A stretch of 64,000 nucleotides of DNA, from contig CBDCTK010000002.1 of assembly GCA_965222225.1 (NCBI GenBank), positions 1,856,001 to 1,920,000 on the forward strand. Direction: 5' to 3'. Position numbers and translations under genes: made by a program. Source of the stretch: Candidatus Poribacteria bacterium (GTDB lineage Bacteria > Poribacteria > WGA-4E > JAJDTR01). Position 1 is the first letter of the stretch. Every line of letters starts with the position of its first letter. This document shows, in pieces, positions 3,380 to 63,309 of the stretch. The notes beneath the pieces were generated by a model. The model was given only the letters and a program-made list of their open reading frames with translations, was not told the origin of the DNA and made no database searches.

Positions 3380-3610
3380 ACCGTACACCAGCCTCTTCAC
3401 ATGGACAGCCTAACGAAAACGTGTTATCCTGATACCTAGGTGAGTAAAGGATCGAACGACTGCAGTTTCATCCTAGCGTCATAGCATTGTACGACTCCCA
3501 CGCTGCCGCCCCACACCCGGAATCTGTAAACTGCCTCTCCTGTTTTCTCGTTTACCACGTTGTCGGCGCACCTGCCCGGAGCTGACCGAGTCGAATTAAG
3601 GAGATAGGCG

Positions 3611-6600
3611 TTGTATTCGATTATAACGAGAGGCTACTTATATCATACCCCTCTAGTCATTTTACTCATCTTAGTCCTCCCTTGTTTCAGCACTCACGCA
3701 AAACCCGTTACCAAGGATCCGAAGTTAACCCAACATTACTCGGAACTTCGAGAAGATTCTGCGGAATCGCCCGAAACCGAGGGTGAATTCGTGAAAGATC
3801 CGAGTTGGGAAACTGAATCCGCCGATCAGCACGATGAAGATGATTGGTGGAGGAGTGCTTCCGAACCGGAACCCCCGACCCCACCTCCCCTAGACCCTTT
3901 TACGCCAGATGCGGAAGACACTTCCATACCCTCCAGGATATTGGCTCCATATTATGAATCGTTACAAAGATGGAAAGATGCACCACTCATGATTGAACCT
4001 CGGATGCTATACGATCTCAAGGAGGATGGTTCCGGGATTGATGAGGAAAAAGGCCTCGCCCTGCCGCTCCAATCTAATCTTCAGATTACCGGACACAAGT
4101 CCGTTACGATTGAAGGCAATGTAACACACTATTTTGGTGAGAGTGATGCCAACCGTTACGCTGGATACAGCACCTATGGGGGTAATAGGCCAGGTCTCGA
4201 CCTCGGCTTAACATCCTCCTACGGATATGACGATTTTGGAAGTTTCGGAGGAGGTTACGGCGGCGGATATGGCTCTGAATATGGGAGCGGGTATGGGGGC
4301 GGCTACGGGAGTGGGTACGGCGGAAGTTTCAGTACATTCGGCAGAGGTGGTGTGGCGCGTGCCACAGGATTCAACCTTCGGCAAACACTCCGAGTTGGGT
4401 TGCATGGCCGCGTTGGTGAGCGTACCCACGTTGCCGTCGATTATAGCGATTCGGACGATTCCTTCGGAGGTGGCTATGGCGGATACGGGGGATATGGTGG
4501 CGGTCTGGGCGGCGCAAAACAACAAAAGATTAAAGTGTGGTATGAGGGCAAGCCGGATAGTATTCTCAAAACAATATCTTTTGGCGACATCACACTGAAT
4601 TTGCCGAATACTCGGTTTCTGAACATCAATCGAAATCTCTTCGGACTCGAAGCGGTTGCACAATTAGGGGGACTCAAGATGACAACCTTCGGTTCTCGAA
4701 GCAAAGGGATATCGGACACGCGGCGTTTCAGAGGGGAATCAACGAGAGCGGGGTACGGTCGAGGCGTCCAGATTGCTGATGCCAACTATGTCAAAGATCG
4801 ATTCTACTCTATCCATCGTGGTGAAGACGATGTTGTACACGAGTCCTATCTGCCGATAAAAAGTGGTAGCGAAGAAATCTATATTGACGACAACGTCGCA
4901 GGCAATAATCAGGGAGGGCAACGCACCGTACGGGGGTACTTCAACCTCCAATTCCCGGGGCAGGATTACAACATCAATTATGAGACCGGAGAGATTGAGT
5001 TTTTAACACCAATCTCCCCCGGCTATACAATCGCCGTTGCTTACGAGTATCTCGGCGATGGCGGAGGGCAGGTTGGGAATCCCGGTAACGTTTTCGTGGA
5101 TGAAAATGATGACGGCTCGATTGATGAGGAGGGAGAGGAAATCGGATACGTTATACTCAAGGACAAAGGATACCGTGGAACAGAAGCGCGTCGGGTCTAC
5201 AACTTGGGCAATCGAAATATTAACCCGCGAGACTATCAAATCACAATTTGGCGGCAAGGCGTTGGAGAGGCATTTGAAACTGATGATGGACCCGTATTAT
5301 ACATTGAAATCTTTGGGCTAGATCAGAATGGCGATGGCAGCATCGATCCGGAGTTTATCGATTTTGACCGTGGTTTGCTGACCTTTCCTGCCACGCGTCC
5401 ACGTCCATTTGTGATTGACAATCCAGAGAGCCCATACTATAAGTACCGAGATCAGCTGAATAACGAGGCCATCTATCTTGAAAACCCGCGCACGGCAGAT
5501 CAAATTTACACCATCGTCGCCGACTACGCCTATCAGTCAGGCACCTACAATGTTGGACTATTTGTGATTCCTGGAAGCGAAACTGTTCGATTGAATAGCA
5601 GAAGGCTACAGCGGGATGTCGATTACATGATGGTGTACGAGGTTGGGAGCCTTACGTTCTTTACCCAACTTGATGAGTTCGATGTCATCGAGGTTGAGTT
5701 CGAGAGAACGCCGTTCGGCGGTTCTTTGCAGCAAACTGTCGCGGGCGTATGGCTTGAATACTCCTACGTGCCGAAGCAAAAACCGCCGGAAGAGCAGAAG
5801 CAAGAAGATCGATTTGGAAGGCTGGGAAGGGGGCAGGATTCTTTTGGTGAGAGAAACCGAATCGGAGGTGGAAGTTCCTTCGGCGGAGGCAGCGGAGGCT
5901 ACGGTAGTGGGTTTGGTGGAGGATATGGCGGTGGGTTCGGCGGAAGCAGCTCTTACTCAAGCCTTGGTGGACGTTCCAGATACGGACTCACTTCAGGGAG
6001 AAGTAGCTATTTTAATCCTGTATACAAGAAAGGGTTTAGCCTATCGACGGGTTATATTCTAAATACGGGGAGCAAACCGAGCACCATTCCGGATGTGAAC
6101 AATGCCCCCAGTCGCCTACAAGCGTTTAACATCAACACAAGCGCTGGACGGAATTTCAACCTAGCTTGGTTCGTCAATCCGTTACCATTCGTGTCGGTGG
6201 AGTATTTCCCGTTGTCAATTGACTTTAGCGGCGAATCAGCGTTTTCTCATAACAACCCCAACAGTGTTTCCGTTGCGCTAATCGATAGCATGGAGGGAGC
6301 GCGCGATTCATCAAACATCCCCACATTCAAATACAACTGGCGCGTGGCAAGTCCGCCAGCGGTGGATGGATTAACGCCCGATAACCGCGCCCTCTTTCAT
6401 GTGCTGCTAAAAGATAAAGATGAGTCTAAAGCGGTCGGCAATTATATGCGCAACCGCGAAGTACCCGCCTCCGCCATCAACTCGCTATTGCAATCCACGG
6501 AACAGCGCCTTGTTATGGAGGTCGGTTATGATTTCACGGATGTTGTTGAAGAATGGGGCGGTTTTTCTTACGGCATCTCTGCGTCGGGGACCGATTTCTC

Positions 6601-9600
6601 TGAACGTGAATTTCTAGAAATTTGGCTACGAGTCCAAGGTGACGACGACGTGACGCTGTTACTCGATCTTGGGATTCTCAATGAAGACACAGACTATGAT
6701 GGTAGACTTGATAGCGAAGACCTACCTCTAGATCTTGAGGACCTCAATGGAGACGATAAGATTGACACATTGGATCTTGATTTGGAGAACCTGCCAGGAT
6801 CCCAAAAATACAGCGCTAACGGTTCCCTCGATACGGGCGAAGACGAAGGTTGGATTTATGACGGGGCTCTCCAACCCACGCCATTTGGAAGCGACAACCA
6901 AGTTTTGGATACCGAGGATCTCAACGGCGACGGTGTGCTAGACACTGTTGATGCATACCTTGAAATCCCCATTTCATTGAATGATTTACCGGAAGAATGG
7001 GTTAAGAAGCGCAATGACAACGGGTGGGTTTTTCTAAGCATTCCCCTCCGTGCGGCGAATGTTTATGGCAGCCGCCTGCCGAATCTCGGGTTCGTTCAAC
7101 ACTTCCGTTTTTGGCTATTAAAGAACAAACCCGGCAAACTGCGGGGAAAACTGGAATGGGCGTCAATCGAAATCGTTGGGAACCGATGGGAACGAGGGGT
7201 GGTTACACAAAACGGCACTATCGTCACGAATACTAATGAAAAATTCTCTGTCGGCACGAAGGACAATTTCAACTTCAACGACTACCAGAAAGCCTACGAG
7301 GAAATTAAAGATGACAATGCCTTCAAAAAGTTGCATCCGTATACGGATGTCACGTTTGGATTCGGCACCCGCCAACAGCGAGAACAGGCACTCGTGTTAG
7401 ACTACAACCTTCTACCCAACTCGTTCGCCGTGACATCGCAACGGCTACGCGGCGTTCAGCAAGGGGAAGGGCAAGACTTTTCCAAACACAACAAGCTAAA
7501 ATTTTGGGTCTACGGCGATAAAAATCGCGAAACGCTTGTATTGCGATTGGCGCCGAGTGTCCGAACCAGTTATCGCTCGTTTTACGGCTCGTCCGACCCG
7601 TTTTCCGACCCGCGCTCGCAGCAGGAGGATGACGTGGACATCTTCGAGAATTTGACGAACTACTACGAGTTCACGCAGGAGATTGACTTTGATGGTTGGA
7701 AACTCATTGAAATCGATCTGGAGGATGTTCAACGGAACGAATATCCGGACATTGTAACCCCAACTGAGGTCCTTGAGGAACCATCAGATTCAAGTCAACC
7801 CGCCACGCCTCAACCTGACGGTCACCCCGACGGATTTGTCGTCCGGGGAACAAATAGTGCCCAACTCTCCATTAAAAATATCGGCGGTATCCTACTCGGC
7901 ATCCGCAACGACCGTGGCGAAGAAATCAGCGGTGAAGTATGGGTGAACGAAATCCATTTGAGCGATCCGCTAGTGCGCTCCGGTTGGGCACGACGTGGAA
8001 ATGTGTCCGTGTCACTTGGAAACCTGTTGAGCGTGCGGGGGGGATATGCCAGTCAAGATAAGGACTTTGAGAACTCAGCCGGCGAAACCGGACGTCAACG
8101 CCAACAACAGCGGGGCTTCAGCACCACGAACAACGATTTGAATATAGACACCGATCTTAATCTCTTTCGGTGGCTTCCTATTAGCTACAACTTCCGAGAG
8201 AATGAGTCCGAAACCGAAAGCAGAAGCGGTTCATTCAGTTCGTTCCAGAGCGGCAAGAGTAAAACCAAAAACCAAGATCTTTCCGTTCGATTCCACCTCC
8301 CTCCGTACCCGTCAATTGGGCTTGCCTACAATCATCAAGACTTTTGGAATGAACGTCAAGGTACGAAAGTTAGCGACCTGTATACCGGAACTTTCCAATA
8401 TAATCTTGGATCAAAGCTAGGCTTGAATCTTCAATACCGGCATGAGGATGTCGACGCCGATACCGGGACGGCAGCCGGTGTTTCGTCGAGTAGCGGCTAC
8501 TCCGGCTTCGGCTCTAGCTACGGTTCTGGTTACGGTTACGGATATAGCAGAAATCAAGATGAAAAAGTTGATGACGGCTCCATTTCACTCAATATTAGTC
8601 CATTTTCTAGTTTTAGCCTAAATCCAACCTACGATGTTCGCCGGATTCTGGAGAAGCGCGAAAGCTCTCCGGAAGCGCCCACTTCCGAACCGGAGTTTAC
8701 TATTGCGAGCCGTGAGCATCGTTTCTCAATGACGCCACGTCTCAATCGCGACCTTTTGGGAATGCGCCCAACCATTAACAACCGGGTTAGCTTGCGCGAG
8801 AACTGGTTTAGCAAGCAGAAAGATATCTCAATCAATGCGAACATTGGGCTTGGAGTAAATATACGACCCCACGTCTGGTTTGGATGGTTGCTACGTAAAC
8901 CAGAAGAAGAGCCAGAAGCGAAGCCAGAAAAACTGGAATCTGTGGATAAGCCTGAGGACGAGTTGCAGACAGAATCGCCGCGAAATCCTTCAGAAGCCGA
9001 TGCTTTCGACGATGAGGTAGAAATGGAAGAACGGCGGCGACAACGGCTTGATAGGATGGAGCGAATGGGGGTAGACACGGAGAGGATACAAGACTTGGAA
9101 GATGAAAGAGGCGACTGGATTAGCCGAGACAAGGCTGAACTTGAACGAAAGTTGAGAGAGCGACGCGGAAGAAAGAAGGACGTGGGTATGGGAGTTTGGA
9201 GAAAAAGTCTCCAAAGTTTTGCCGTAAATACAAACGTAAGCTTCGACATTCAAGATTCTTTTCGGAGGTTAGACGCGGGGCAGTCGGTACTTGGTGTTCT
9301 GGATTTTCCGGATGAAGATGAACGGCGAACTCAGTCACGCCAAGGGCAACGTTACACTGTCCGCGGCTCTGTAGACCCATGGTCATGGGTGTCGTTGGGC
9401 ACAAATGTATCGCTCACAAACAATTTCGCGAAAACATCAAGCACCACTTCCCGGAATAAGTCCAAAAACTATGAAGGTGATGTAAAGTTTTTCAATGCCA
9501 AGAATTCTTCAAGTTTTCAGGTGCGCTATGGCTTCACACGCCGAGATCGGCGTAACCTTGCGACATTGATTAGCGAAAGCTCCGCCCACAATCCCTCAAT

Positions 9601-10030
9601 AAGTTGGAGGCAATCGTGGAGGCAGGAAACTAGCAGTTCACTAGGAATCCGTGTAACGCTTCGCGAGCAGCAAAGAAGTGGTGGCTCCATCAGGAGTACT
9701 TCTCTGATAGTTACGCCTAACATTAATTTTGACTATAGTCTTAATGTAGAAAGAGGCGTTTGGATGCCGTTCTTTGGTAAGATTAAACTCAAACACGACC
9801 TTAAAATGAGCAACACGTTCTCGACCGTTGTTCGACGCGAACGCTTTGGCGCGAATCAAGAGGAAAAATCTGAGCGGTACGAGACAACTGTACGCGCAAA
9901 TTACGAGCTGAGCACCCGGTTGAGTGCGCAACTCAATCTTGGTTTGAGCTACAACAACGATCGTGTCGAGGAGGGCAAGGATTTCTTCTCGGTAGCAAGC
10001 TCCCTCTCGGTACGAGGCGAGTTTCAGTGA
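3611..10030 (+). CDS. sprA: SprA-like large outer-membrane protein (type IX secretion translocon homolog)
   Basis: Signal peptide. SprA-like segments: 'KIKVWYEG..DSILKTISFGDITLNLPNTRF..RNLFGLEAVAQLG', 'IPGSETVRLNSRRLQRDVDYMMVYEVG', 'DTEDLNGDGVL', 'GEVWVNEIHLSD'. Amphipathic beta-strand C-terminal third ending VRGEFQ. RBS AAGGAG upstream of TTG. Confidence 0.8.
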   Translation: MYSIITRGYLYHTPLVILLILVLPCFSTHAKPVTKDPKLTQHYSELREDSAESPETEGEFVKDPSWETESADQHDEDDWWRSASEPEPPTPPPLDPFTPDAEDTSIPSRILAPYYESLQRWKDAPLMIEPRMLYDLKEDGSGIDEEKGLALPLQSNLQITGHKSVTIEGNVTHYFGESDANRYAGYSTYGGNRPGLDLGLTSSYGYDDFGSFGGGYGGGYGSEYGSGYGGGYGSGYGGSFSTFGRGGVARATGFNLRQTLRVGLHGRVGERTHVAVDYSDSDDSFGGGYGGYGGYGGGLGGAKQQKIKVWYEGKPDSILKTISFGDITLNLPNTRFLNINRNLFGLEAVAQLGGLKMTTFGSRSKGISDTRRFRGESTRAGYGRGVQIADANYVKDRFYSIHRGEDDVVHESYLPIKSGSEEIYIDDNVAGNNQGGQRTVRGYFNLQFPGQDYNINYETGEIEFLTPISPGYTIAVAYEYLGDGGGQVGNPGNVFVDENDDGSIDEEGEEIGYVILKDKGYRGTEARRVYNLGNRNINPRDYQITIWRQGVGEAFETDDGPVLYIEIFGLDQNGDGSIDPEFIDFDRGLLTFPATRPRPFVIDNPESPYYKYRDQLNNEAIYLENPRTADQIYTIVADYAYQSGTYNVGLFVIPGSETVRLNSRRLQRDVDYMMVYEVGSLTFFTQLDEFDVIEVEFERTPFGGSLQQTVAGVWLEYSYVPKQKPPEEQKQEDRFGRLGRGQDSFGERNRIGGGSSFGGGSGGYGSGFGGGYGGGFGGSSSYSSLGGRSRYGLTSGRSSYFNPVYKKGFSLSTGYILNTGSKPSTIPDVNNAPSRLQAFNINTSAGRNFNLAWFVNPLPFVSVEYFPLSIDFSGESAFSHNNPNSVSVALIDSMEGARDSSNIPTFKYNWRVASPPAVDGLTPDNRALFHVLLKDKDESKAVGNYMRNREVPASAINSLLQSTEQRLVMEVGYDFTDVVEEWGGFSYGISASGTDFSEREFLEIWLRVQGDDDVTLLLDLGILNEDTDYDGRLDSEDLPLDLEDLNGDDKIDTLDLDLENLPGSQKYSANGSLDTGEDEGWIYDGALQPTPFGSDNQVLDTEDLNGDGVLDTVDAYLEIPISLNDLPEEWVKKRNDNGWVFLSIPLRAANVYGSRLPNLGFVQHFRFWLLKNKPGKLRGKLEWASIEIVGNRWERGVVTQNGTIVTNTNEKFSVGTKDNFNFNDYQKAYEEIKDDNAFKKLHPYTDVTFGFGTRQQREQALVLDYNLLPNSFAVTSQRLRGVQQGEGQDFSKHNKLKFWVYGDKNRETLVLRLAPSVRTSYRSFYGSSDPFSDPRSQQEDDVDIFENLTNYYEFTQEIDFDGWKLIEIDLEDVQRNEYPDIVTPTEVLEEPSDSSQPATPQPDGHPDGFVVRGTNSAQLSIKNIGGILLGIRNDRGEEISGEVWVNEIHLSDPLVRSGWARRGNVSVSLGNLLSVRGGYASQDKDFENSAGETGRQRQQQRGFSTTNNDLNIDTDLNLFRWLPISYNFRENESETESRSGSFSSFQSGKSKTKNQDLSVRFHLPPYPSIGLAYNHQDFWNERQGTKVSDLYTGTFQYNLGSKLGLNLQYRHEDVDADTGTAAGVSSSSGYSGFGSSYGSGYGYGYSRNQDEKVDDGSISLNISPFSSFSLNPTYDVRRILEKRESSPEAPTSEPEFTIASREHRFSMTPRLNRDLLGMRPTINNRVSLRENWFSKQKDISINANIGLGVNIRPHVWFGWLLRKPEEEPEAKPEKLESVDKPEDELQTESPRNPSEADAFDDEVEMEERRRQRLDRMERMGVDTERIQDLEDERGDWISRDKAELERKLRERRGRKKDVGMGVWRKSLQSFAVNTNVSFDIQDSFRRLDAGQSVLGVLDFPDEDERRTQSRQGQRYTVRGSVDPWSWVSLGTNVSLTNNFAKTSSTTSRNKSKNYEGDVKFFNAKNSSSFQVRYGFTRRDRRNLATLISESSAHNPSISWRQSWRQETSSSLGIRVTLREQQRSGGSIRSTSLIVTPNINFDYSLNVERGVWMPFFGKIKLKHDLKMSNTFSTVVRRERFGANQEEKSERYETTVRANYELSTRLSAQLNLGLSYNNDRVEEGKDFFSVASSLSVRGEFQ

Positions 10031-10147: not shown

Positions 10148-11053
10148 TCAGGCGTAGCCCATATCCCTCAATTTTCGAACATCACGCCGCCAGTCTTCCT
10201 TTACATAGACTTGCAATTCCAGAAACACGGAAGCGTTGAGAAACTGTTCTATCTCCTCCCGAGCAAGTCTGCCTATCTGCTTAATCATATTTCCGCGATC
10301 GCCAATCAAGATTCGCTTTTGAGACAACCGTTCAGTGTAGATTATGGCGCGAATATAGATTTTACCATTCGAGCGATGCTTGAATTCCTCAACCATGACG
10401 CCCGACGCATAAGGAATCTCCTGTTGAGTCCTCAGGAAAACCTTCTCCCGCACCGTTTCGGCAACAAAAAAACGATCGGGCAAATCACTAATCTGATCAT
10501 CCGGAAAATAGAGCGGTCCAGTCGGCAAATGTGTAACAATCAGATCGCGAAGTCGTAAAACATCGCCTGAATTCTGGGCTGAAATTGGGACAATCTCAAC
10601 AAAGGGGAACTTGCCTCTGTATTGGGCAATAAGTGGCAGCAGCGCTGGCGCCTCAATCAGGTCTATCTTGTTGATGACCAAGAATACTTTTCTTGACTCG
10701 GATTCGCGTATGCGATTAAGGATCCGTGCTTCAAGAACCGGCGGTAGCTGGATGCCATCGACCATATATATAATCAAGTCCGCATCTTTAATCGCGCGGT
10801 AGGCAGCCTTAACCATCTCGTCGTGAAGCAGGTATTTCGGTGCAACTATGCCGGGAGTATCCAAAAAAATAAGCTGGTAGCCTTCAGTCGTGACGATTCC
10901 CATTATCCGATTGCGGGTCGTCTGCGGCTTAGGGGTTACAATTGCCAACTTCTCGCCCATCATCCCGTTCAGCAGGGTCGATTTGCCGACGTTCGGTTCA
11001 CCGATGATACTAACATAACCAGATTTGAAAGACTGCTGATTGGGTGCGTTCAT
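10148..11053 (-). CDS. era: GTPase Era
   Basis: GEPNVGKSTLLN, PQTTR, DTPG, NKID, KH domain, VFLELQVYVKEDW. Confidence 0.97.
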   Translation of the reverse strand: MNAPNQQSFKSGYVSIIGEPNVGKSTLLNGMMGEKLAIVTPKPQTTRNRIMGIVTTEGYQLIFLDTPGIVAPKYLLHDEMVKAAYRAIKDADLIIYMVDGIQLPPVLEARILNRIRESESRKVFLVINKIDLIEAPALLPLIAQYRGKFPFVEIVPISAQNSGDVLRLRDLIVTHLPTGPLYFPDDQISDLPDRFFVAETVREKVFLRTQQEIPYASGVMVEEFKHRSNGKIYIRAIIYTERLSQKRILIGDRGNMIKQIGRLAREEIEQFLNASVFLELQVYVKEDWRRDVRKLRDMGYA

Positions 11054-12132
11054 TTTCCGGTACCATCCACTGTTGACGAGAATTCGCGATGTGAAGTAAG
11101 CGGGTTAAGACGCGAACCGCTCCATCCACCCGGCGCGGACGGGCTTACGAGTCCAGGGCGCCGTAAACCCGACAAGGCTTGCACGTCATAAATTTCCTGA
11201 CAGACACTCTCATATCTCAGATTGCCAATCGTAGTCCCGCTTGACAGATTGATTACGACGATGCCACAAAACGGTGACTCCCTTGCGATTGGTATATCAC
11301 TAAAAGTCGGGCTCTTGCGGCGCAATTGCGACAGCCCAACAAACAGATAGTCGCCATAGCGCGCCATACCGCGCACAAAACCGGGCAAGCGCGTCACCAC
11401 CTCATAACCGCCTCGCCCCGTGTCCACGTGAGCGAGTTCCCCCTTTGCCGACAGCAACACATAGAGTTCATCATCGTACACCCTAGGAGCGTGCGGCATC
11501 GGTAATCCTCCAAGTACAACTTCGTTGCTTGGGACGTGTATGACAACCCCGTCGGAAGTTTTGCCAGGCCGCCACCCTTCAAAATTATTCGTTTCACCAA
11601 GTGCCGTGACATACTCGGGGTGACCCTCAACCATTGCGACGCCGTTGAGGTGACACCGATCCTCTGGTGCAAGTTCGCTGATGAATTGTGGTCGCCACTG
11701 GGGATTGAAGTTGTTCCGGTCGTCCTTCAGGGAAAGGCATGAAAACAGTGTGTTGACTTGCCATAGCCCCGCCAGCCCCCACACTAGGTCATGGATTTTT
11801 AGTTCGCCACAGTAATACGCCGCTTGTGGTACGTATTGCCCATCGGAGGTGTTCGAACGACGTGGATAACTGCTAGCCAATGCGCGGACGTAGGAGAGCA
11901 TAACCACTTCGTCTTTCGTTGCGACAGCAAGATAATCATCCTTGGCAGCCAGCCCCATAGGCGAGTCAAAATCTTGTGACACCTGAACGAGATTTTCGGA
12001 GTCTCCTGCGCTAATGTAGATAATCTTGTTCGCTTGGTAGATACTAATTACAAGCGTACACTGGAGTTTCCAGAGTAGCTCGGAGAATTCCGTGGAATGA
12101 GTGCATAAAACAGGGGTTAGTGGTTGACTCAT
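11050..12132 (-). CDS. TIGR03032 / DUF4915 family protein
   Basis: Motifs VNTLFSCL, WRPQFISELAPEDRCHLNGVAM, GLPMPHAPR, PGFVRG, FVGLS, EIYDV; ATGA overlap with era. Confidence 0.85.
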   Translation of the reverse strand: MSQPLTPVLCTHSTEFSELLWKLQCTLVISIYQANKIIYISAGDSENLVQVSQDFDSPMGLAAKDDYLAVATKDEVVMLSYVRALASSYPRRSNTSDGQYVPQAAYYCGELKIHDLVWGLAGLWQVNTLFSCLSLKDDRNNFNPQWRPQFISELAPEDRCHLNGVAMVEGHPEYVTALGETNNFEGWRPGKTSDGVVIHVPSNEVVLGGLPMPHAPRVYDDELYVLLSAKGELAHVDTGRGGYEVVTRLPGFVRGMARYGDYLFVGLSQLRRKSPTFSDIPIARESPFCGIVVINLSSGTTIGNLRYESVCQEIYDVQALSGLRRPGLVSPSAPGGWSGSRLNPLTSHREFSSTVDGTGK

Positions 12133-12301
12133 ATCTGATTTTGATGGGCCGAGACGATAGATATTATGTCGTATACGCTTCGGAACACAGATTCGCGTTC
12201 CTTACAGAGTGCTTCTCCGGTCTCTTCTTCCAGTAACACAGATCCCAAACTCAAGAAAGAACCGAGTTTCACCGTATCAAACACAACTATTCCGCGCTTT
12301 C

Positions 12302-12342
12302 GCCAATCCTCCAACTTTCCAATCTTCCTGTCTTCCATTTCC
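12302..12342. repeat. Short tandem octamer repeat (CCAATCTT-like)
   Basis: ccaatcct-ccaacttt-ccaatctt-cctgtctt-ccattt. Confidence 0.5.
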
Positions 12343-12350
12343 GATTTACG

Positions 12351-13308
12351 TTAAAATCCTAGCTGTTTATCAACCTGATTCCGCAGTGGCAGATCGCCTC
12401 GACAGAATCGATCGAGGTTCTCGCTAAAAATCTCAAGAACATACTGTCCCTCGTGCTGTGTGCCGCCGGAGATATGCGAGGTAATCAGCAAATTCTCAAA
12501 TCCCAGAGTTCGCTATCCTCTGGCAACGGCTCGGGATCGAACACATCAAGAGCCGCCGATGCCAGTTGTCCACTTAGCAGCGCATCAGCCAATGCGCCTT
12601 GGTCGATGATACCGCCCCGAGACATTCCAACGAGCATCGCAGTACGCTTAATCAAGGCGATCTGTTCGGCGCCAATCATGCCGGTTGTCTGTGGAGTGCG
12701 CGGCACGGTCACTATAACGTAGTCTGACTCCCGCAACAGGTCGCTAAGTTTATCGAATCCGTGCAATTCGTGGACAAAATCGGGTTTGTTTGACGGATAA
12801 AGATCCGCCGCTATAATCCGTGCATCAAAGCCCTGCGCGCGCTTCGCCATCTGGCGCCCCAGAATTCCAAGCCCGATGATTCCCACTGTGCTTCGGGCAA
12901 GTTCAACCGCTTTGGATCGAAGACTTTGATCCACTGTCTCCGCTGTTGCTTGAAAATCGAGTCACGAATACAACGCGTAAAAGCCAGTATCATACCGATG
13001 GCGCTATCGGCGACAGCGCCCGCATGAGTGCCACTCGCGCTTGTTAACAACACATCACTGTCTACCAATTCCGGTATAGCGACGAAATAGTCCACCCCAG
13101 AGCTTGTTGACTGAATCCATTTTAGCTTCTTTGCCCGCAAATATAGATTGCGATTCAAACCACCGACGAAAACGTCGGCATCCACAATTGAATCCGGTAT
13201 CTCTTCTCGACTGTTACAATAGTCGAAGTCAAACTCCGGATATTTATTCTTGAGGCAGGGGATTCCATCTCTCACTGCTAGGTGAGTCGGGGCAAACACA
13301 ATTTTCAT
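12351..13308 (-). pseudogene. D-2-hydroxyacid dehydrogenase with two frameshifts
   Basis: N-part (LKWIQSTSSGVD, HAGAVADSA), middle (GIIGLGILG, SRGGII, ALDVFDPEPLP) and C-part (ENLLITSHISGG..NQVDKQLGF*) lie in separate frames; shifts near 12933 and 12497. Confidence 0.75.
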
Positions 13309-13403
13309 CAAATACTCTCCTCGAATTGGTCTTCGCTTGATCACTACGATTCTATAACCTACATTGATTGTCTTTATTCTGAAACAACCGCCGTACCGCT
13401 ATC

Positions 13404-14237
13404 TCACCCCTTTTTCGCCTCCAATTCCAGGCGCCCTTTCAGGTTGTCAATGAACTGGCGGGCAACGCGGCCCGAACGTCCGCTGGATGACGCCTCCCAC
13501 TCCAGCGCTGCACGACGCAACTCCTCTGCCGGGATCGATATGTCATATTTCTGGGCGTAGTGTGAGACCATCTGTAAATATGTGGCTTGGGGAATCCGAT
13601 AAAACGCGAGACGCAGTCCGAATCGATCGCTTAGGGAAACCTTCTCTTCCGTGGCTTCACGAGGGTACAATTCGTCTTCATCAGCGTCGGGAAACTGGTT
13701 TTCCTTAACCTGACGCGGCATGAGGTGCCGCCGATTTGATGTGGCGTAAATGAGGACGTTCTCCGGACGCGCCGCAATGCCGCCTTCCAACATGGCTTTC
13801 AACTCTCGATACTCGGGTTCCCCTTCGCTGAAGGCGAGGTCGTCGCAAAAAAGAATGTACCGTTCCGGGCGCGACCATAGCAGGTCCGCAATTTCTTGAA
13901 GGTGTAGCAAACCGTCTCTGTTTACCTCAACCAACCGTAGTCCTTGACTTTCGTATTGTCGAAGCATGCCTTTGATGAGCGAGGATTTGCCGGTTCCGCG
14001 GTCACCCCAAAGCAGAACGTGGTTGGCAGGCAAACCGCGTAGAAACTGGAGGGTATTTCGATTGACCTCCTCAATTTGACGTGTAATGCCGATAAGATCG
14101 CCAATCTCTACGAGATCAGGATGCTTAATCGGAAGCAAATCTCCCGAACCGTTCTGACTACGCCATCGAAAGGCATTGTACTCGTCAAGCAGATCGTCTG
14201 CCGACGCAATTGGCAGACGTGATGTCGTCGCGTTCAA
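13404..14237 (-). CDS. DUF815 family AAA+ ATP-binding protein
   Basis: NHVLLWGDRGTGKSS, LFCDDLAF, YATSNRRHL, EEKVSLSDRFGL, SGRSGRVARQF. The true start may be about 25 codons further upstream. Confidence 0.9.
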   Translation of the reverse strand: MNATTSRLPIASADDLLDEYNAFRWRSQNGSGDLLPIKHPDLVEIGDLIGITRQIEEVNRNTLQFLRGLPANHVLLWGDRGTGKSSLIKGMLRQYESQGLRLVEVNRDGLLHLQEIADLLWSRPERYILFCDDLAFSEGEPEYRELKAMLEGGIAARPENVLIYATSNRRHLMPRQVKENQFPDADEDELYPREATEEKVSLSDRFGLRLAFYRIPQATYLQMVSHYAQKYDISIPAEELRRAALEWEASSSGRSGRVARQFIDNLKGRLELEAKKG

Positions 14238-24988: not shown

Positions 24989-25982
24989 ACCAATGGTGCT
25001 AGTTTGAAATTTGGAGGTTAATAAGCATAACATTCCCTTTTGGCTTTGCTTTAACGCGAAAGGTATCAGGGCATGAGACGATTTCCTCGATTCTTCCGTT
25101 AATTTGAGTATCGGTAGCTATCAAATAACGGGAGGAAATCTAGACTCATGACCATAGTAGATTTTATCACAGAACTGTTTTGTCGTGTTGATGATAAACT
25201 CTCACAGCACGGTAAAAACCATAAGCATAGCCAAGCCAAACTTTATCCGTCTGAAGTGGTTACCATTGCCATGCTCTTTGCGCTCAAGGGTGTGGGTAAT
25301 CGAGCCTCCTATCGCTGGATAGCGAACAATTTCAAATCCTTATTTCCGATGTTACCCGAGCGTACCCGATTGTTCCGCTTATTCGACGGGCATCAACATC
25401 TCATTGACGTTTTTATGGCGAATCCTTCGCTTATCGGTGGAATTGACACGTACGGTATTGAATTGATTCACCCGCGCCGAGAAGGGCGCTCTAAACGTCA
25501 AATCGGACGCAAAGGCATTTCCAACCAACGATGGATTGTAGGTGGAAAACTTTGCTTGCTACACAATCATCTCGGACTGATTGTCAACTGGGACTGCGAC
25601 ACTGCCAATGTACATGATGGGAGTGCCTTCCAACATCTCGTTGATGGGGTCAGTGACCAGATGGTTGTTTTTGCCGATGTAAATTTCGCCAAAGCGGATT
25701 GGTTCCCTTCCAACTTGCGTCTGTGCCGACGTGGCGAGTGGAATTCTCGGATGCTGTGAGTGGAATTCTCGGATGCTGGTAGAAACGATTTTGTCCATGT
25801 TGACGCTAGTGTGCCATTTTAAGAAAGTCATGCACCGTCGTTGGAGTTACTTCAAAACGCGAGTCGGCTTTACAATGGCTTTGGTCAATCTCTTGGTACA
25901 GTGGAATGGATTGTCGATTGACGACGATGGCTTTGTGCCTCTGTCAATAGCTCAATTCAGTCTCTAAACTAGCACCAAAGGT
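24989..25982 (+). mobile_element. IS982-like insertion sequence
   Basis: TIRs accaatggtgctagttt / aaactagcaccaaaggt (AC...GT ends); TATTA target duplication on both sides. Confidence 0.8.
25148..25967 (+). pseudogene. IS982-like transposase, frameshifted by a 22-bp tandem duplication
   Basis: DFITELFCRVDD, SEVVT, IDTYGIEL, R.LVET; gagtggaattctcggatgctg is duplicated at 25736-25778. Confidence 0.8.
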
Positions 25983-26609
25983 TATTACTGCCCCAAGACA
26001 TAGACCGGTATGGTACGTCAGGGGCTTGAACAGTTTGGACACATTGACATCCTGGTGAACAGCGTGGGGTCACGCCCAGAACGTGACCGTGTGCCCATGG
26101 TTGAGTTGGAAGAAGATGCATGGGATAAAGAATTCAACATCAACACCAAGGGGAATTTCCTCTGCTGCAGAACGGTTGCCAGGCACATGATAGACCGTGG
26201 CGGCGGGGGAAAAATCATCAACATTGCCTCTACGTCAGGTAGACATGCTAGACCCCGTTTTGCTGCCTACTGCGTCTCTAAGGCCGCGCTGCTTATTTTT
26301 ACGCAGTGTCTCGCATGCGAGTTAGGGGCTTACCACATCAACGTCAACGCTATCTCCCCAACCGCCGTGGATTCAGAACGGACAGGCGATATAGCAGCCG
26401 CGATGCCGTCGGAGCTTGTGTCACCAGAAACCTGGAGGACGAGCAAGAGGCGTGAGGAATTTATCAACAACCGGGTTGCGATGACTCCCTTAGGACGAGT
26501 TGCGGACGGATCTGATGTTGCCAGGACAGCGGCATTTCTCGCTTCGTCCGAGTCGGATTACCTCACAGGCATCGCCATTAGTGTCACCGGCGGTTCTGAA
26601 TTGGACTGA
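25983..26609 (+). pseudogene. SDR oxidoreductase lacking its N-terminal Rossmann motif (IS-disrupted)
   Basis: FGHIDILVN, YCVSK, TPLGR, FLAS are present; GxxxGxG is absent; 5' remnant at 24946-24988 lies on the other side of the IS. Confidence 0.75.
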
Positions 26610-62062: not shown

Positions 62063-63309
62063 GGAATTAGTAGCTTGTAGCTTTTAGACTGACGACAAAC
62101 ATAAAACTTGGTACCCTGTCGTAAATCTTTTCGTCACACGTAGATGTCCATAGTGACTATTCTTCTCGTAGGAGTTTGCTATGGACATTTTGAATCTTAT
62201 GAAAGAGTTTCCAAATCAAGAATCTTGTCTCAGATTTATAGAGGAAAAACGTTGGAAGGACGGTGTTTGCTGTATCCACTGTGGCAGTGAAAAAGTTGGA
62301 CGCAAGAACAAAAACGACATTACTACTGGTTGGAATTGCTACGATTGTGAATCTAGCTTTTCGGCTACAGCAGGAACCATCTTCCATGGTACCAAGATAC
62401 CTCTCCAGAAATGGTTTTTGGCTATCTCAATTCTTTCCAATGCCAAGAAAAGCATATCGAGTTGTCAGCTTGCTCGTGACTTGGACATGAATCAAAAGTC
62501 CGCTTGGTATATGGCAATGCGCCTCCGTGAGAAAATGAGTGATAGTGATGAATTGCTGAAAGGGATAGTTGAAGCGGACGAAACCTATGTCGGCGGCAAA
62601 CCCAGAGCAAAATCTAAGAGAGGTAGAGGCACAAATAAATCTCCCGTCATCGGCGTAGTCGAGAGAGGCGGTCGGGTGGTTGCTAAATTCATGAAGGTTC
62701 TATCTGGTGAAAATATCAGAGAATTCATCCTTAGCAATGTCTCACCCGATGAGTCTATTCTTATGACTGATGAATTTCGCTCTTACAATAGTCTGGACGA
62801 AGATATCGAAAGACATGTTATCCATCACCAAGAGAGATATGTTTCTGAGGACGGCGTAACTCACACCAACACCATCGAGTCGTTTTGGGCTTGTGTCAAG
62901 AGGTCATTCTACGGAACGCATCATCACTACAGCAAGAAGTGGCTGCCACTGTATATCATGGAGTCTTGCTGGAAATATAATCGCAGAAAAGATGATGAGA
63001 TTTTCATAAGATTTTTTGATGAATGCTTCACCTGAGCCACATGAATTGTTTGGCTATCGGTATATTCTGTCAACGACAACATCATGGTGTGCTGAAAATC
63101 CCATAGTGTTGGAAATTAAAATCCCGCAGATAACCCGCAATGCTCCCGCGAGCATGTACAAACGCTTGGTCAACATGATATGCCTCCATTTCTCTCTTAT
63201 AGAGATGTATTTTAGTGTGAATCAAGATTCCGAACACTGTCTAAAGTTATTGTACATTAAGAAAAGAAAAGCAAGCAAATCAACCAAAAAGCAGTTAACT
63301 ACTAAGTCC
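62063..63309 (+). mobile_element. IS1595 family element
   Basis: Imperfect TIRs ggaattagtagct / agttaactactaagtcc; AT-richer than its flanks; no matching target duplication. Confidence 0.75.
62181..63035 (+). CDS. IS1595 family transposase
   Basis: N-terminal Zn ribbon (CIHC..CYDC), GTIFHGTK.PL.KWF, EADETYVGG, TDE, HTNTIESFW. Confidence 0.93.
   Translation: MDILNLMKEFPNQESCLRFIEEKRWKDGVCCIHCGSEKVGRKNKNDITTGWNCYDCESSFSATAGTIFHGTKIPLQKWFLAISILSNAKKSISSCQLARDLDMNQKSAWYMAMRLREKMSDSDELLKGIVEADETYVGGKPRAKSKRGRGTNKSPVIGVVERGGRVVAKFMKVLSGENIREFILSNVSPDESILMTDEFRSYNSLDEDIERHVIHHQERYVSEDGVTHTNTIESFWACVKRSFYGTHHHYSKKWLPLYIMESCWKYNRRKDDEIFIRFFDECFT

Follow-up and report, generated by a model that had tools for sequence, protein, structure and literature searches.

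In the stretch of DNA analysed here, from a sponge-associated Candidatus Poribacteria genome (64,000 nt, GenBank assembly GCA_965222225.1, contig CBDCTK010000002.1, positions 1,856,001 to 1,920,000 of the forward strand; in the following, the window), a large gene located between der and era encodes a true but very divergent homolog of SprA/Sov, the relationship extending along the whole length of the protein. Together with PorU-like sortases, PorV/PorQ-family barrels and numerous proteins bearing a secretion-type C-terminal domain (CTD), all encoded elsewhere in the same genome, this SprA-like protein very probably forms the outer-membrane translocon of a type-IX-like secretion or surface-display route in Poribacteria. 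A previous reading of the window, made by a model from the DNA letters and their translations (the sequence-only reading), had described a 2139-aa secreted protein with segments resembling SprA/Sov and a strand-rich C-terminus. It had proposed a divergent or minimal route similar to a type IX secretion system (T9SS), embedded in a core-genome context of a Poribacteria-like host, and had named profile searches, an AlphaFold model, a genome search for partner genes and a phylogeny as suitable checks.

A divergent SprA homolog throughout Poribacteria

The open reading frame (ORF) of the SprA-like gene counts 2139 codons plus stop and begins with TTG (Table 1). The claimed size is right. Inspection of the N-terminus by eye reveals a basic residue, a hydrophobic run and a small-residue site, and the claimed secretion is in line with this putative signal peptide. 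The NCBIfam model TIGR04189 (SprA/Sov, equivalog) matches the protein with an E-value of 2e-47 and 161.3 bits in four collinear stretches, the best one at aa 1094-1528, and in six-frame translation the gene covers model positions 127-254, 373-672, 720-797 and 1082-1503. Likewise, Pfam SprA_N (PF14349) aligns to aa 1420-1523 with 26.1 bits (E=5e-6), corroborating the conserved SprA/Sov segments that had been noted from sequence; PF14349 is also among the precomputed annotations for a subset of the listed homologs. Only a single SprA-like locus is found in the source genome with TIGR04189, and the GC content across the gene (0.48-0.52) is the same as in its flanks.

For structural comparison, the protein was modelled with AlphaFold as two overlapping 1200-aa halves from alignments of 28 sequences. 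Searching the PDB with Foldseek, ranks 1 to 4 are all SprA for both the N-terminal model (from 8gl8_A at 5.1e-35 to 6h3j_A at 2.1e-25, with rank 5 at 7.6e-4) and the C-terminal model (from 2.2e-26 to 6.7e-20, with MtrB next at 1.5e-7), so that SprA and the next family are separated by between 12 and more than 20 orders of magnitude in the two halves. In addition, VIA-align places residues 3-1199 of the C-terminal model collinear with residues 906-2401 (approximately) of the SprA chain, aligning 808-842 residues. A SprA fold is thus indicated along the whole protein by the Foldseek ranking of both halves and the collinear alignment. Within the best-conserved block, a CBM11-like beta-sandwich (model residues 250-517) aligns to 6r31_A with a VIA-align Z of 13.5 and a root-mean-square deviation (rmsd) of 2.7 Å over 145 residues. 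The strand-rich C-terminus noted from sequence is borne out by the model, whose last 640 or so residues contain about 23 long strands, a run that is broken by a charged helical insert at about aa 1798-1869 (DSSP of the model). The AlphaFold check is hence favourable as far as both halves have SprA as top match, while the strand number and the lateral gate are unreadable from halves; counting up to 36 strands over both half-models was considered and discarded as unreliable. Neither of the outcomes that the sequence-only reading had named as fatal, i.e., the lack of a SprA match in profile or structure or an unrelated fold, occurred.

The gene is universal in the sampled Poribacteria. Among 32 related loci in the genome collection, showing 53-90% identity to the query, 31 are labelled Poribacteria, in agreement with the NCBI lineage of the source genome and with the proposed Poribacteria-like host. 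An intact ORF of about 2100-2300 codons is present in 30 of them, the two shorter frames belonging to one metagenome-assembled genome (MAG). This MAG carries two der-sprA-era copies with sprA frames shortened to 2002 and 1671 codons (L021 and L022), a doubling which suggests an assembly duplication or frameshift errors. TIGR04189 matches in 81 of 81 sampled Poribacteria genomes, representing 17 of 17 genera, and is nowhere over its cut-off. Comparison with the two nearest orthologs gave ratios of nonsynonymous to synonymous substitution rates (dN/dS) of 0.070 and 0.091, showing that the gene is under strong purifying selection. Moreover, contigs from RNA libraries, which hold neither transcript ends nor strand nor expression level, cover the gene in 4 of 4 runs examined, from 2 studies, with depth in 27-30 of 30 bins.

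As proposed among the checks, a phylogeny was computed (FastTree, 59 SprA homologs, 1767 columns of a fast alignment), giving an approximate and unrooted tree. Here, the 12 Poribacteria-type sequences group together with support 100; the stem of their clade measures 1.36 substitutions per site, and the clade falls outside another one of 42 sequences (support 98) from the Fibrobacteres-Chlorobi-Bacteroidetes (FCB) group. All 12 Poribacteria-type proteins possess Gly/Tyr-rich low-complexity inserts, 1-3 per protein, that a composition scan found in none of the 47 other SprA homologs, and some Poribacteria versions additionally carry N-terminal LysM domains. In the NCBI lineage, Poribacteria stand among the candidate phyla and not in FCB, and the phylogeny presented in Kamke et al. 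(2014; PMC3909097) puts them beside the Planctomycetes-Verrucomicrobia-Chlamydiae (PVC) group with Aerophobetes, Hydrogenedentes and, loosely, Elusimicrobia. The nearest match outside Poribacteria (P0101, 174 bits versus the query and 205.8 bits on TIGR04189) is labelled Elusimicrobia, and genes of this Elusimicrobia type, encoding about 1,840 aa, recur at 61 loci (L203-L263), nearly all labelled Elusimicrobia or Elusimicrobiota and including one complete chromosome. Judged by these sequences and their labels, SprA-like proteins therefore reach beyond FCB in at least two phyla.

Several points weigh against this reading of the gene. Despite the highly significant TIGR04189 match, both profile scores stay under the curated cut-offs, i.e., 161.3 versus 200 bits for the TIGR04189 equivalog and 26.1 bits versus a gathering threshold of 27 for SprA_N, the latter missed by 0.9 bit, and phmmer with the whole protein against PDB sequences gave no match at E<=0.01. 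Model confidence is only moderate, with predicted TM-scores (pTM) of 0.46 and 0.35 and predicted local distance difference test (pLDDT) values of 67.2 and 59.7 for the C-terminal and N-terminal halves, respectively, the low-confidence parts of the latter being the low-complexity stretches. TM-scores to SprA are just 0.13-0.29 at an rmsd of 16-29 Å, since each half of the giant barrel was folded by itself, and the VIA Z values for SprA (13.3-13.9) do not separate from those for generic barrels (12-13), so that only the aligned length and the Foldseek E-values discriminate between them. A closed 36-strand barrel is not demonstrated by the predicted half-models. Furthermore, the RNA-library contigs may reflect DNA carry-over, and the lineage is an uncultured one.

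PorU-like proteins, PorV/PorQ-family barrels and CTD-tagged cargo

The source genome (5.70 Mb, 2 contigs, 94.9% complete) encodes two PorU-like proteins, one of 2080 and one of 2092 aa, which reach 403.4 and 408 bits on NF033707 (cut-off 420). Each terminates in a type-A CTD, and the second gene is directly followed by one for a PorV2-like barrel. In the PDB, PorU (6za2_A) is matched at 2.5e-27 and gingipain R is matched as well, with alignment of the AGHGG histidine and of a cysteine, which we take to be the catalytic C25 residues. PorU-like genes are present in 81 of 81 Poribacteria genomes at E<=1e-40, with 1-3 copies each. Besides, the source genome holds at least six PorV/PorQ-family barrels, six of them exceeding the NF033709 subfamily cut-off of 90 with 104.7-227.5 bits, and none of these reaches the PorV, PorQ or PorV2 equivalog cut-offs (250, 220 and 325, respectively). 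The best PorV-like barrel matches solved PorV (6h3i_F) at 7.2e-16. Two barrels directly follow CTD adhesins of 3251 aa (L074, C2:1564162-1577000) and 3076 aa (L075, C2:345238-359310), each adhesin thus having its own PorV/PorQ-family barrel; the next gene at L075 is SusC/TonB-receptor-like (CarboxypepD_reg plus Plug). When the best PorV-like barrel was modelled in complex with the CTD of its neighbour, a mark of 0.88 was obtained versus 0.00 for the best control, with contacts agreeing to at least 94% and a partner pLDDT of at least 90. This mark is reached by 116 of 157 solved complexes and by 2 of 215 mismatched pairs. Since a like complex (8GL6) has already been solved, the predicted complex speaks for likeness and is not independent proof.

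A CTD profile built from the genome's own sequences finds 76 ORFs, with the domain ending 12 residues or fewer from the stop codon in all 76, and 31 aligned CTDs show 60% mean column identity despite unrelated passengers. PF18962 matches are over the cut-off in 12 of 18 cases and TIGR04183 gives 26-34 bits (cut-off 23) on six proteins, corresponding to type A CTDs that score over the cut-offs at the extreme C-terminus. The host genome therefore combines CTD-bearing cargo with both PorU-like proteins and the six or more PorV/PorQ-family barrels. From a domain scan of 41 of the 76 CTD ORFs, the cargo comprises FG-GAP repeat paralogs in tandem arrays (18 of 41), WD40 propellers (10), leucine-rich repeat (LRR) proteins (7, among which five also have cohesin and dockerin), and others, i.e., an S8 subtilase, an M36 protease, a CotH/lamin-tail/malectin protein and Ig-rich adhesins (6). 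Two tandem arrays (C2:5220668-5235823 and C2:75884-90923) contain about 9 and 8 CTD-tagged paralogs, respectively, mostly FG-GAP_2 proteins of about 540 aa, the second array holding two WD40 proteins as well. Outside the set of 76, three C-terminal domains (C2:39794-40069, C2:3370155-3370487 and C2:837614-837877) match the CTD part of the PorZ model and may represent a second CTD class; one of them belongs to a protein of about 1030 aa encoded just upstream of a PorV-like barrel (L073). PorZ itself was not found, since hits to its model, of at most 43 bits, were confined to CTD and propeller pieces.

If the route works as in Flavobacterium and Porphyromonas, the cargo (for the most part repeat proteins of the WD40, LRR-cohesin-dockerin and FG-GAP kinds, besides proteases and giant adhesins) would cross the inner membrane by Sec. 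The CTD might then be recognized at the SprA-like barrel and the protein pass through it, to be received by a PorV-like shuttle barrel, before a PorU-like sortase would cleave the CTD and release or anchor the passenger. No GldLM/PorLM motor or GldKN/PorKN ring that could energize such a route is detectable.

Motor and ring components, alternative readings and significance

The missing energy module also weighs against the proposed route. In the parts of the literature consulted, the canonical T9SS is described as requiring a motor driven by the proton-motive force, and GldL, GldM, GldN, PorP and PorZ were undetected in the source genome, with no GldK beyond ordinary formylglycine-generating enzymes (FGE). 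Hence, the genome search proposed by the sequence-only reading returned PorU-like, PorV/PorQ-like and CTD cargo genes and left GldK/L/M/N, PorP and PorZ undetected, so that neither the motor (PorL/GldL-PorM/GldM) nor the ring (PorK/GldK-PorN/GldN) of a canonical T9SS was found. In the searches for GldM, GldL, GldN and PorP/SprF, the source genome gave no match, and the control genomes were also silent. Own profiles built from nine gldKLMN operons and used in an exhaustive, unfiltered search (hmmsearch --max) of the complete set of 35,952 ORFs gave best E-values of 0.47 (GldL), 0.19 (GldM) and 1.4 (GldN), and in the 81 Poribacteria genomes GldM had 2 hits and GldL 1 hit, all of only 16-22 bits. 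GldK-like matches were rejected as PorK, being FGE-sulfatase proteins beside CoaBC/KsgA or TPR/FG-GAP genes and without L/M/N-like genes downstream.

The controls bear on how these negatives can be read. A first positive control with five SprA-bearing FCB genomes (KSB1, Ignavibacteria and others) failed, GldM and GldL being found in 0 of 5 each. In a control sample of 41 genomes of the phylum around a Bacteroidota-labelled genome (G081-G125), SprA is over the cut-off in 34, GldM is matched in 10, in 9 of them over the cut-off, and GldK is over the cut-off in the same 9. The GldM/GldK models accordingly miss 25 of 34 SprA-positive genomes on the FCB side, the same gap as in Poribacteria, and an own alignment of nine GldM sequences recovered only its own nine genomes, i.e., brought no gain in sensitivity. 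Among FCB-side genomes, too, it may thus be common for SprA to occur with neither motor nor ring detectable. In one control genome (G108, contig C186), a weak GldK-like match (8889-9416, 144 bits, 664-aa frame) and a weak GldM-like match (11994-12539, 36 bits, 382-aa frame) lie about 2.5 kb apart and may be a divergent PorK/PorM pair. As the gap extends to most SprA-bearing FCB-side genomes, either many SprA-bearing lineages genuinely lack motor and ring, or these components evolve too fast for the profiles to follow. From the suggestion of a divergent or minimal T9SS-like route, divergence is thus supported, while minimality rests on searches that remote homologs could escape.

A bolder reading, possible but less likely than not, is that SprA-centred secretion is older and wider than FCB and would proceed in Poribacteria without the GldLM/PorLM motor and the GldKN/PorKN ring, with SprA, PorV-type shuttles and PorU-type sortases as a self-sufficient core that would be energized by other means or do without energization. 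Elusimicrobiota and most of the SprA-bearing genomes sampled may be in a similar state, and the Poribacteria-specific Gly/Tyr-rich loops may form a built-in gate or plug of the very wide pore. A complete canonical T9SS, possible but not the expectation, would agree with the main reading of a SprA-like translocon on the identity of the gene and differ only in the energy module, its PorL/M-like and PorK/N-like components having diverged beyond the reach of profiles. The Poribacteria SprA retains only 161 bits versus about 2,000-2,800 for canonical genomes, and at this relative divergence a GldL of 215 aa or a GldN of 330 aa would drop below detection; the weak pair in G108 also indicates that divergent versions exist. 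However, even the unfiltered search with the nine-operon profiles and the survey of 81 genomes gave nothing beyond the marginal hits listed above, PorU and PorV retained much more signal than SprA, and GldK, a strongly conserved fold yielding 515-600 bits in positive genomes, is represented here by FGE-sulfatase enzymes with unrelated neighbours only.

Much less probable is that the SprA fold has been put to another use, such as that of a large porin, of a channel for uptake or of a structural protein in the envelope, and that the CTD proteins are exported otherwise. The scores under the family cut-offs, the lineage-specific Gly/Tyr inserts, the LysM domains of some versions and the missing motor would fit such a role, as would the lack of any T9SS partner adjacent to the gene in all flanks examined; sprA, though, stands alone in known systems as well. 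On the other hand, the SprA-like protein, PorU-like proteins and CTD cargo co-occur in every genome sampled, the SprA-like locus is the only one in the source genome, and no other candidate was seen that could carry the 76 CTD proteins, in folded form, through the outer membrane. Finally, a recent horizontal acquisition from Bacteroidota or a contaminating contig, for which the published restriction of the T9SS to Bacteroidota or FCB could be invoked, is effectively refuted by the position of the window within a 5.6-Mb contig, a GC content equal to that of the flanks, and the deep separate clade and phylum-wide presence, which argue against both.

Very probably, a real, selected and phylum-wide SprA homolog is central to a T9SS-like export route for CTD-tagged repeat proteins, with the motor undetected. 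Passages of two articles describe the T9SS as restricted to Bacteroidota or the FCB group (PMC12611786, PMC11285876), and its genes are there called 'absent from other bacterial phyla' (PMC11285876). This range is contradicted by the conserved and selected SprA/PorU/PorV/CTD set in every sampled Poribacteria genome, considering the lineage labels of the loci, the NCBI lineage and the 2014 phylogeny. Possible Por-type CTDs (TIGR04183) on poribacterial eukaryote-like proteins, 'especially WD40 repeats', are already mentioned in the relevant sections of Kamke et al. (2014; PMC3909097), which state that no structural Por genes were found and that the pathway 'remains to be revealed'; the machinery reported missing there is now supplied. 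Neither PMC13052501 nor PMC7313196 links Poribacteria with the T9SS, and literature searches whose coverage excluded subscription journals and bioRxiv supplements found no report of SprA or T9SS machinery in Poribacteria. The CTD-tagged repeat proteins are the main candidates for the interaction of the symbionts with their sponges, and with an export route named, their display at the surface can be tested. Should the motor be truly absent, Poribacteria would offer a natural test of a translocon working without GldLM, which bears on the T9SS mechanism in general.

Genomic context and comparison with known systems

The SprA-like gene stands alone, and its der/era context is incidental. Both flanking genes are clearly assigned (der, TIGR03594, 527.5 bits; era, NF000908, 351.9 bits; both well over the equivalog cut-offs). 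The der-sprA-era arrangement is found only in 9 of 32 loci (L014-L022, about 87-90% identity, the flank of L019 without der), with der alone kept in one further locus (L023), and the other 22 loci have different neighbours, e.g., MoxR, HpcH aldolase, IGPD, FG-GAP/ASPIC and GFO/IDH/MocA proteins. As it is kept only in the closest relatives, at genus level and with unrelated flanks elsewhere, this synteny was rejected as functional context, so that the core-genome setting holds in those relatives only. As had been noted from sequence, the window contains no other recognizable T9SS gene: among its 49 ORFs of at least 110 aa, no further T9SS family was found with Pfam (on 7 and 42 ORFs) or with NCBIfam (on only 5), none of the 76 CTD ORFs lies inside, and the remaining ORFs are housekeeping or metabolic.

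Some neighbours deserve mention in their own right. On the minus strand, a DUF4915/TIGR03032 protein (11050-12132), overlapping the era start by 4 nt, and a DUF815 AAA ATPase (13404-14237) each match a family of unknown function over the full length. The NAD domain of a 2-hydroxyacid dehydrogenase (12488-13344, minus strand) and a short-chain dehydrogenase (25148-26606, plus strand) both start mid-profile beside an unassigned ORF and may be frameshifted or split genes. Near the window end, an IS1595-family transposase (DDE_Tnp_IS1595 plus zinc ribbon; 62181-63032, plus strand) is located beside an LRR protein. Just upstream of the SprA-like gene of one Poribacteria MAG there is a FliG-like gene (L040:2668-3342, minus strand), indicating that at least some Poribacteria carry flagellar genes.

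Table 1. Features of the SprA-like gene by position in the window, with strand and basis of assignment.
Feature	Position	Strand	Basis
Shine-Dalgarno-like AAGGAG	3598..3603	+	7 nt before TTG start, read from sequence
SprA-like gene	3611..10030	+	ORF; TIGR04189 E=2e-47; Foldseek top match SprA for both halves; dN/dS 0.07-0.09
Putative Sec signal peptide, about aa 1-30	3611..3700	+	Translation judged by eye
Gly/Tyr/Ser-rich low-complexity insert 1, aa 193-256	4187..4378	+	Composition scan; pLDDT <50; flanked by two long predicted strands
Gly/Tyr/Ser-rich low-complexity insert 2, aa 738-799	5822..6007	+	Composition scan; pLDDT <50 at aa 724-805; flanked by predicted strands
Best-conserved SprA block, aa 1094-1528	6890..8194	+	TIGR04189 positions 1082-1503; holds Pfam SprA_N (aa 1420-1523)
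CBM11-like beta-sandwich within best-conserved block, aa ~1189-1456	7175..7978	+	VIA-align to 6r31_A
C-terminal barrel-wall region, aa ~1504-2136	8120..10018	+	~23 long antiparallel strands (DSSP of model); collinear SprA alignment

Among known systems, SprA of Flavobacterium johnsoniae (PDB 6H3I, 6H3J, 8GL6 and 8GL8) and Sov of Porphyromonas gingivalis are the obvious counterparts. The Poribacteria protein resembles them in size (2139 aa versus canonical frames of 2200-2750 aa), in its four collinear profile blocks, in having SprA as the only strong structural match of both halves, in the beta-sandwich within the most conserved block and in a strand-rich C-terminus aligned to the end of SprA. 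In addition, its gene co-occurs with PorV-like, PorU-like and CTD cargo genes. In contrast to these counterparts, the Poribacteria proteins score an order of magnitude fewer bits than canonical SprA, form their own deep clade with 1-3 Gly/Tyr-rich inserts each and belong to a host outside FCB in which GldKLMN, PorP and PorZ were undetected.

With the PorU-PorV/PorZ-PorQ system of P. gingivalis (PorU 6ZA2; NF033707, NF033709-11), the Poribacteria proteins share a PorU-like match to the C25 core and the CTD with aligned His and Cys, a PorU-like gene directly followed by that of a PorV-family barrel, a PorV-like match to solved PorV and a predicted placement of the CTD on the PorV-like barrel. 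They differ in the size of the PorU-like proteins, which at about 2,080-2,090 aa are some twice as long as solved PorU with its 1,156-aa chain, in copy number (2 PorU-like copies here and 1-3 across Poribacteria; PorV/PorQ paralogs numbering at least six, some of them devoted to giant adhesins), and in scores below the PorV, PorQ and PorU equivalog cut-offs, PorZ not being found. The next-nearest sequences to the Poribacteria clade are SprA-like proteins of Elusimicrobiota and of Gemmatimonadota-type MAGs labelled Longimicrobiales, which likewise fall beyond the classical range or on its margin and are encoded by single large genes (1,840-2,030 aa) with a TIGR04189 match. In these proteins, however, the match is over the cut-off (205.8 and 454.9 bits versus 161-184 bits in Poribacteria), and Gly/Tyr inserts are lacking.

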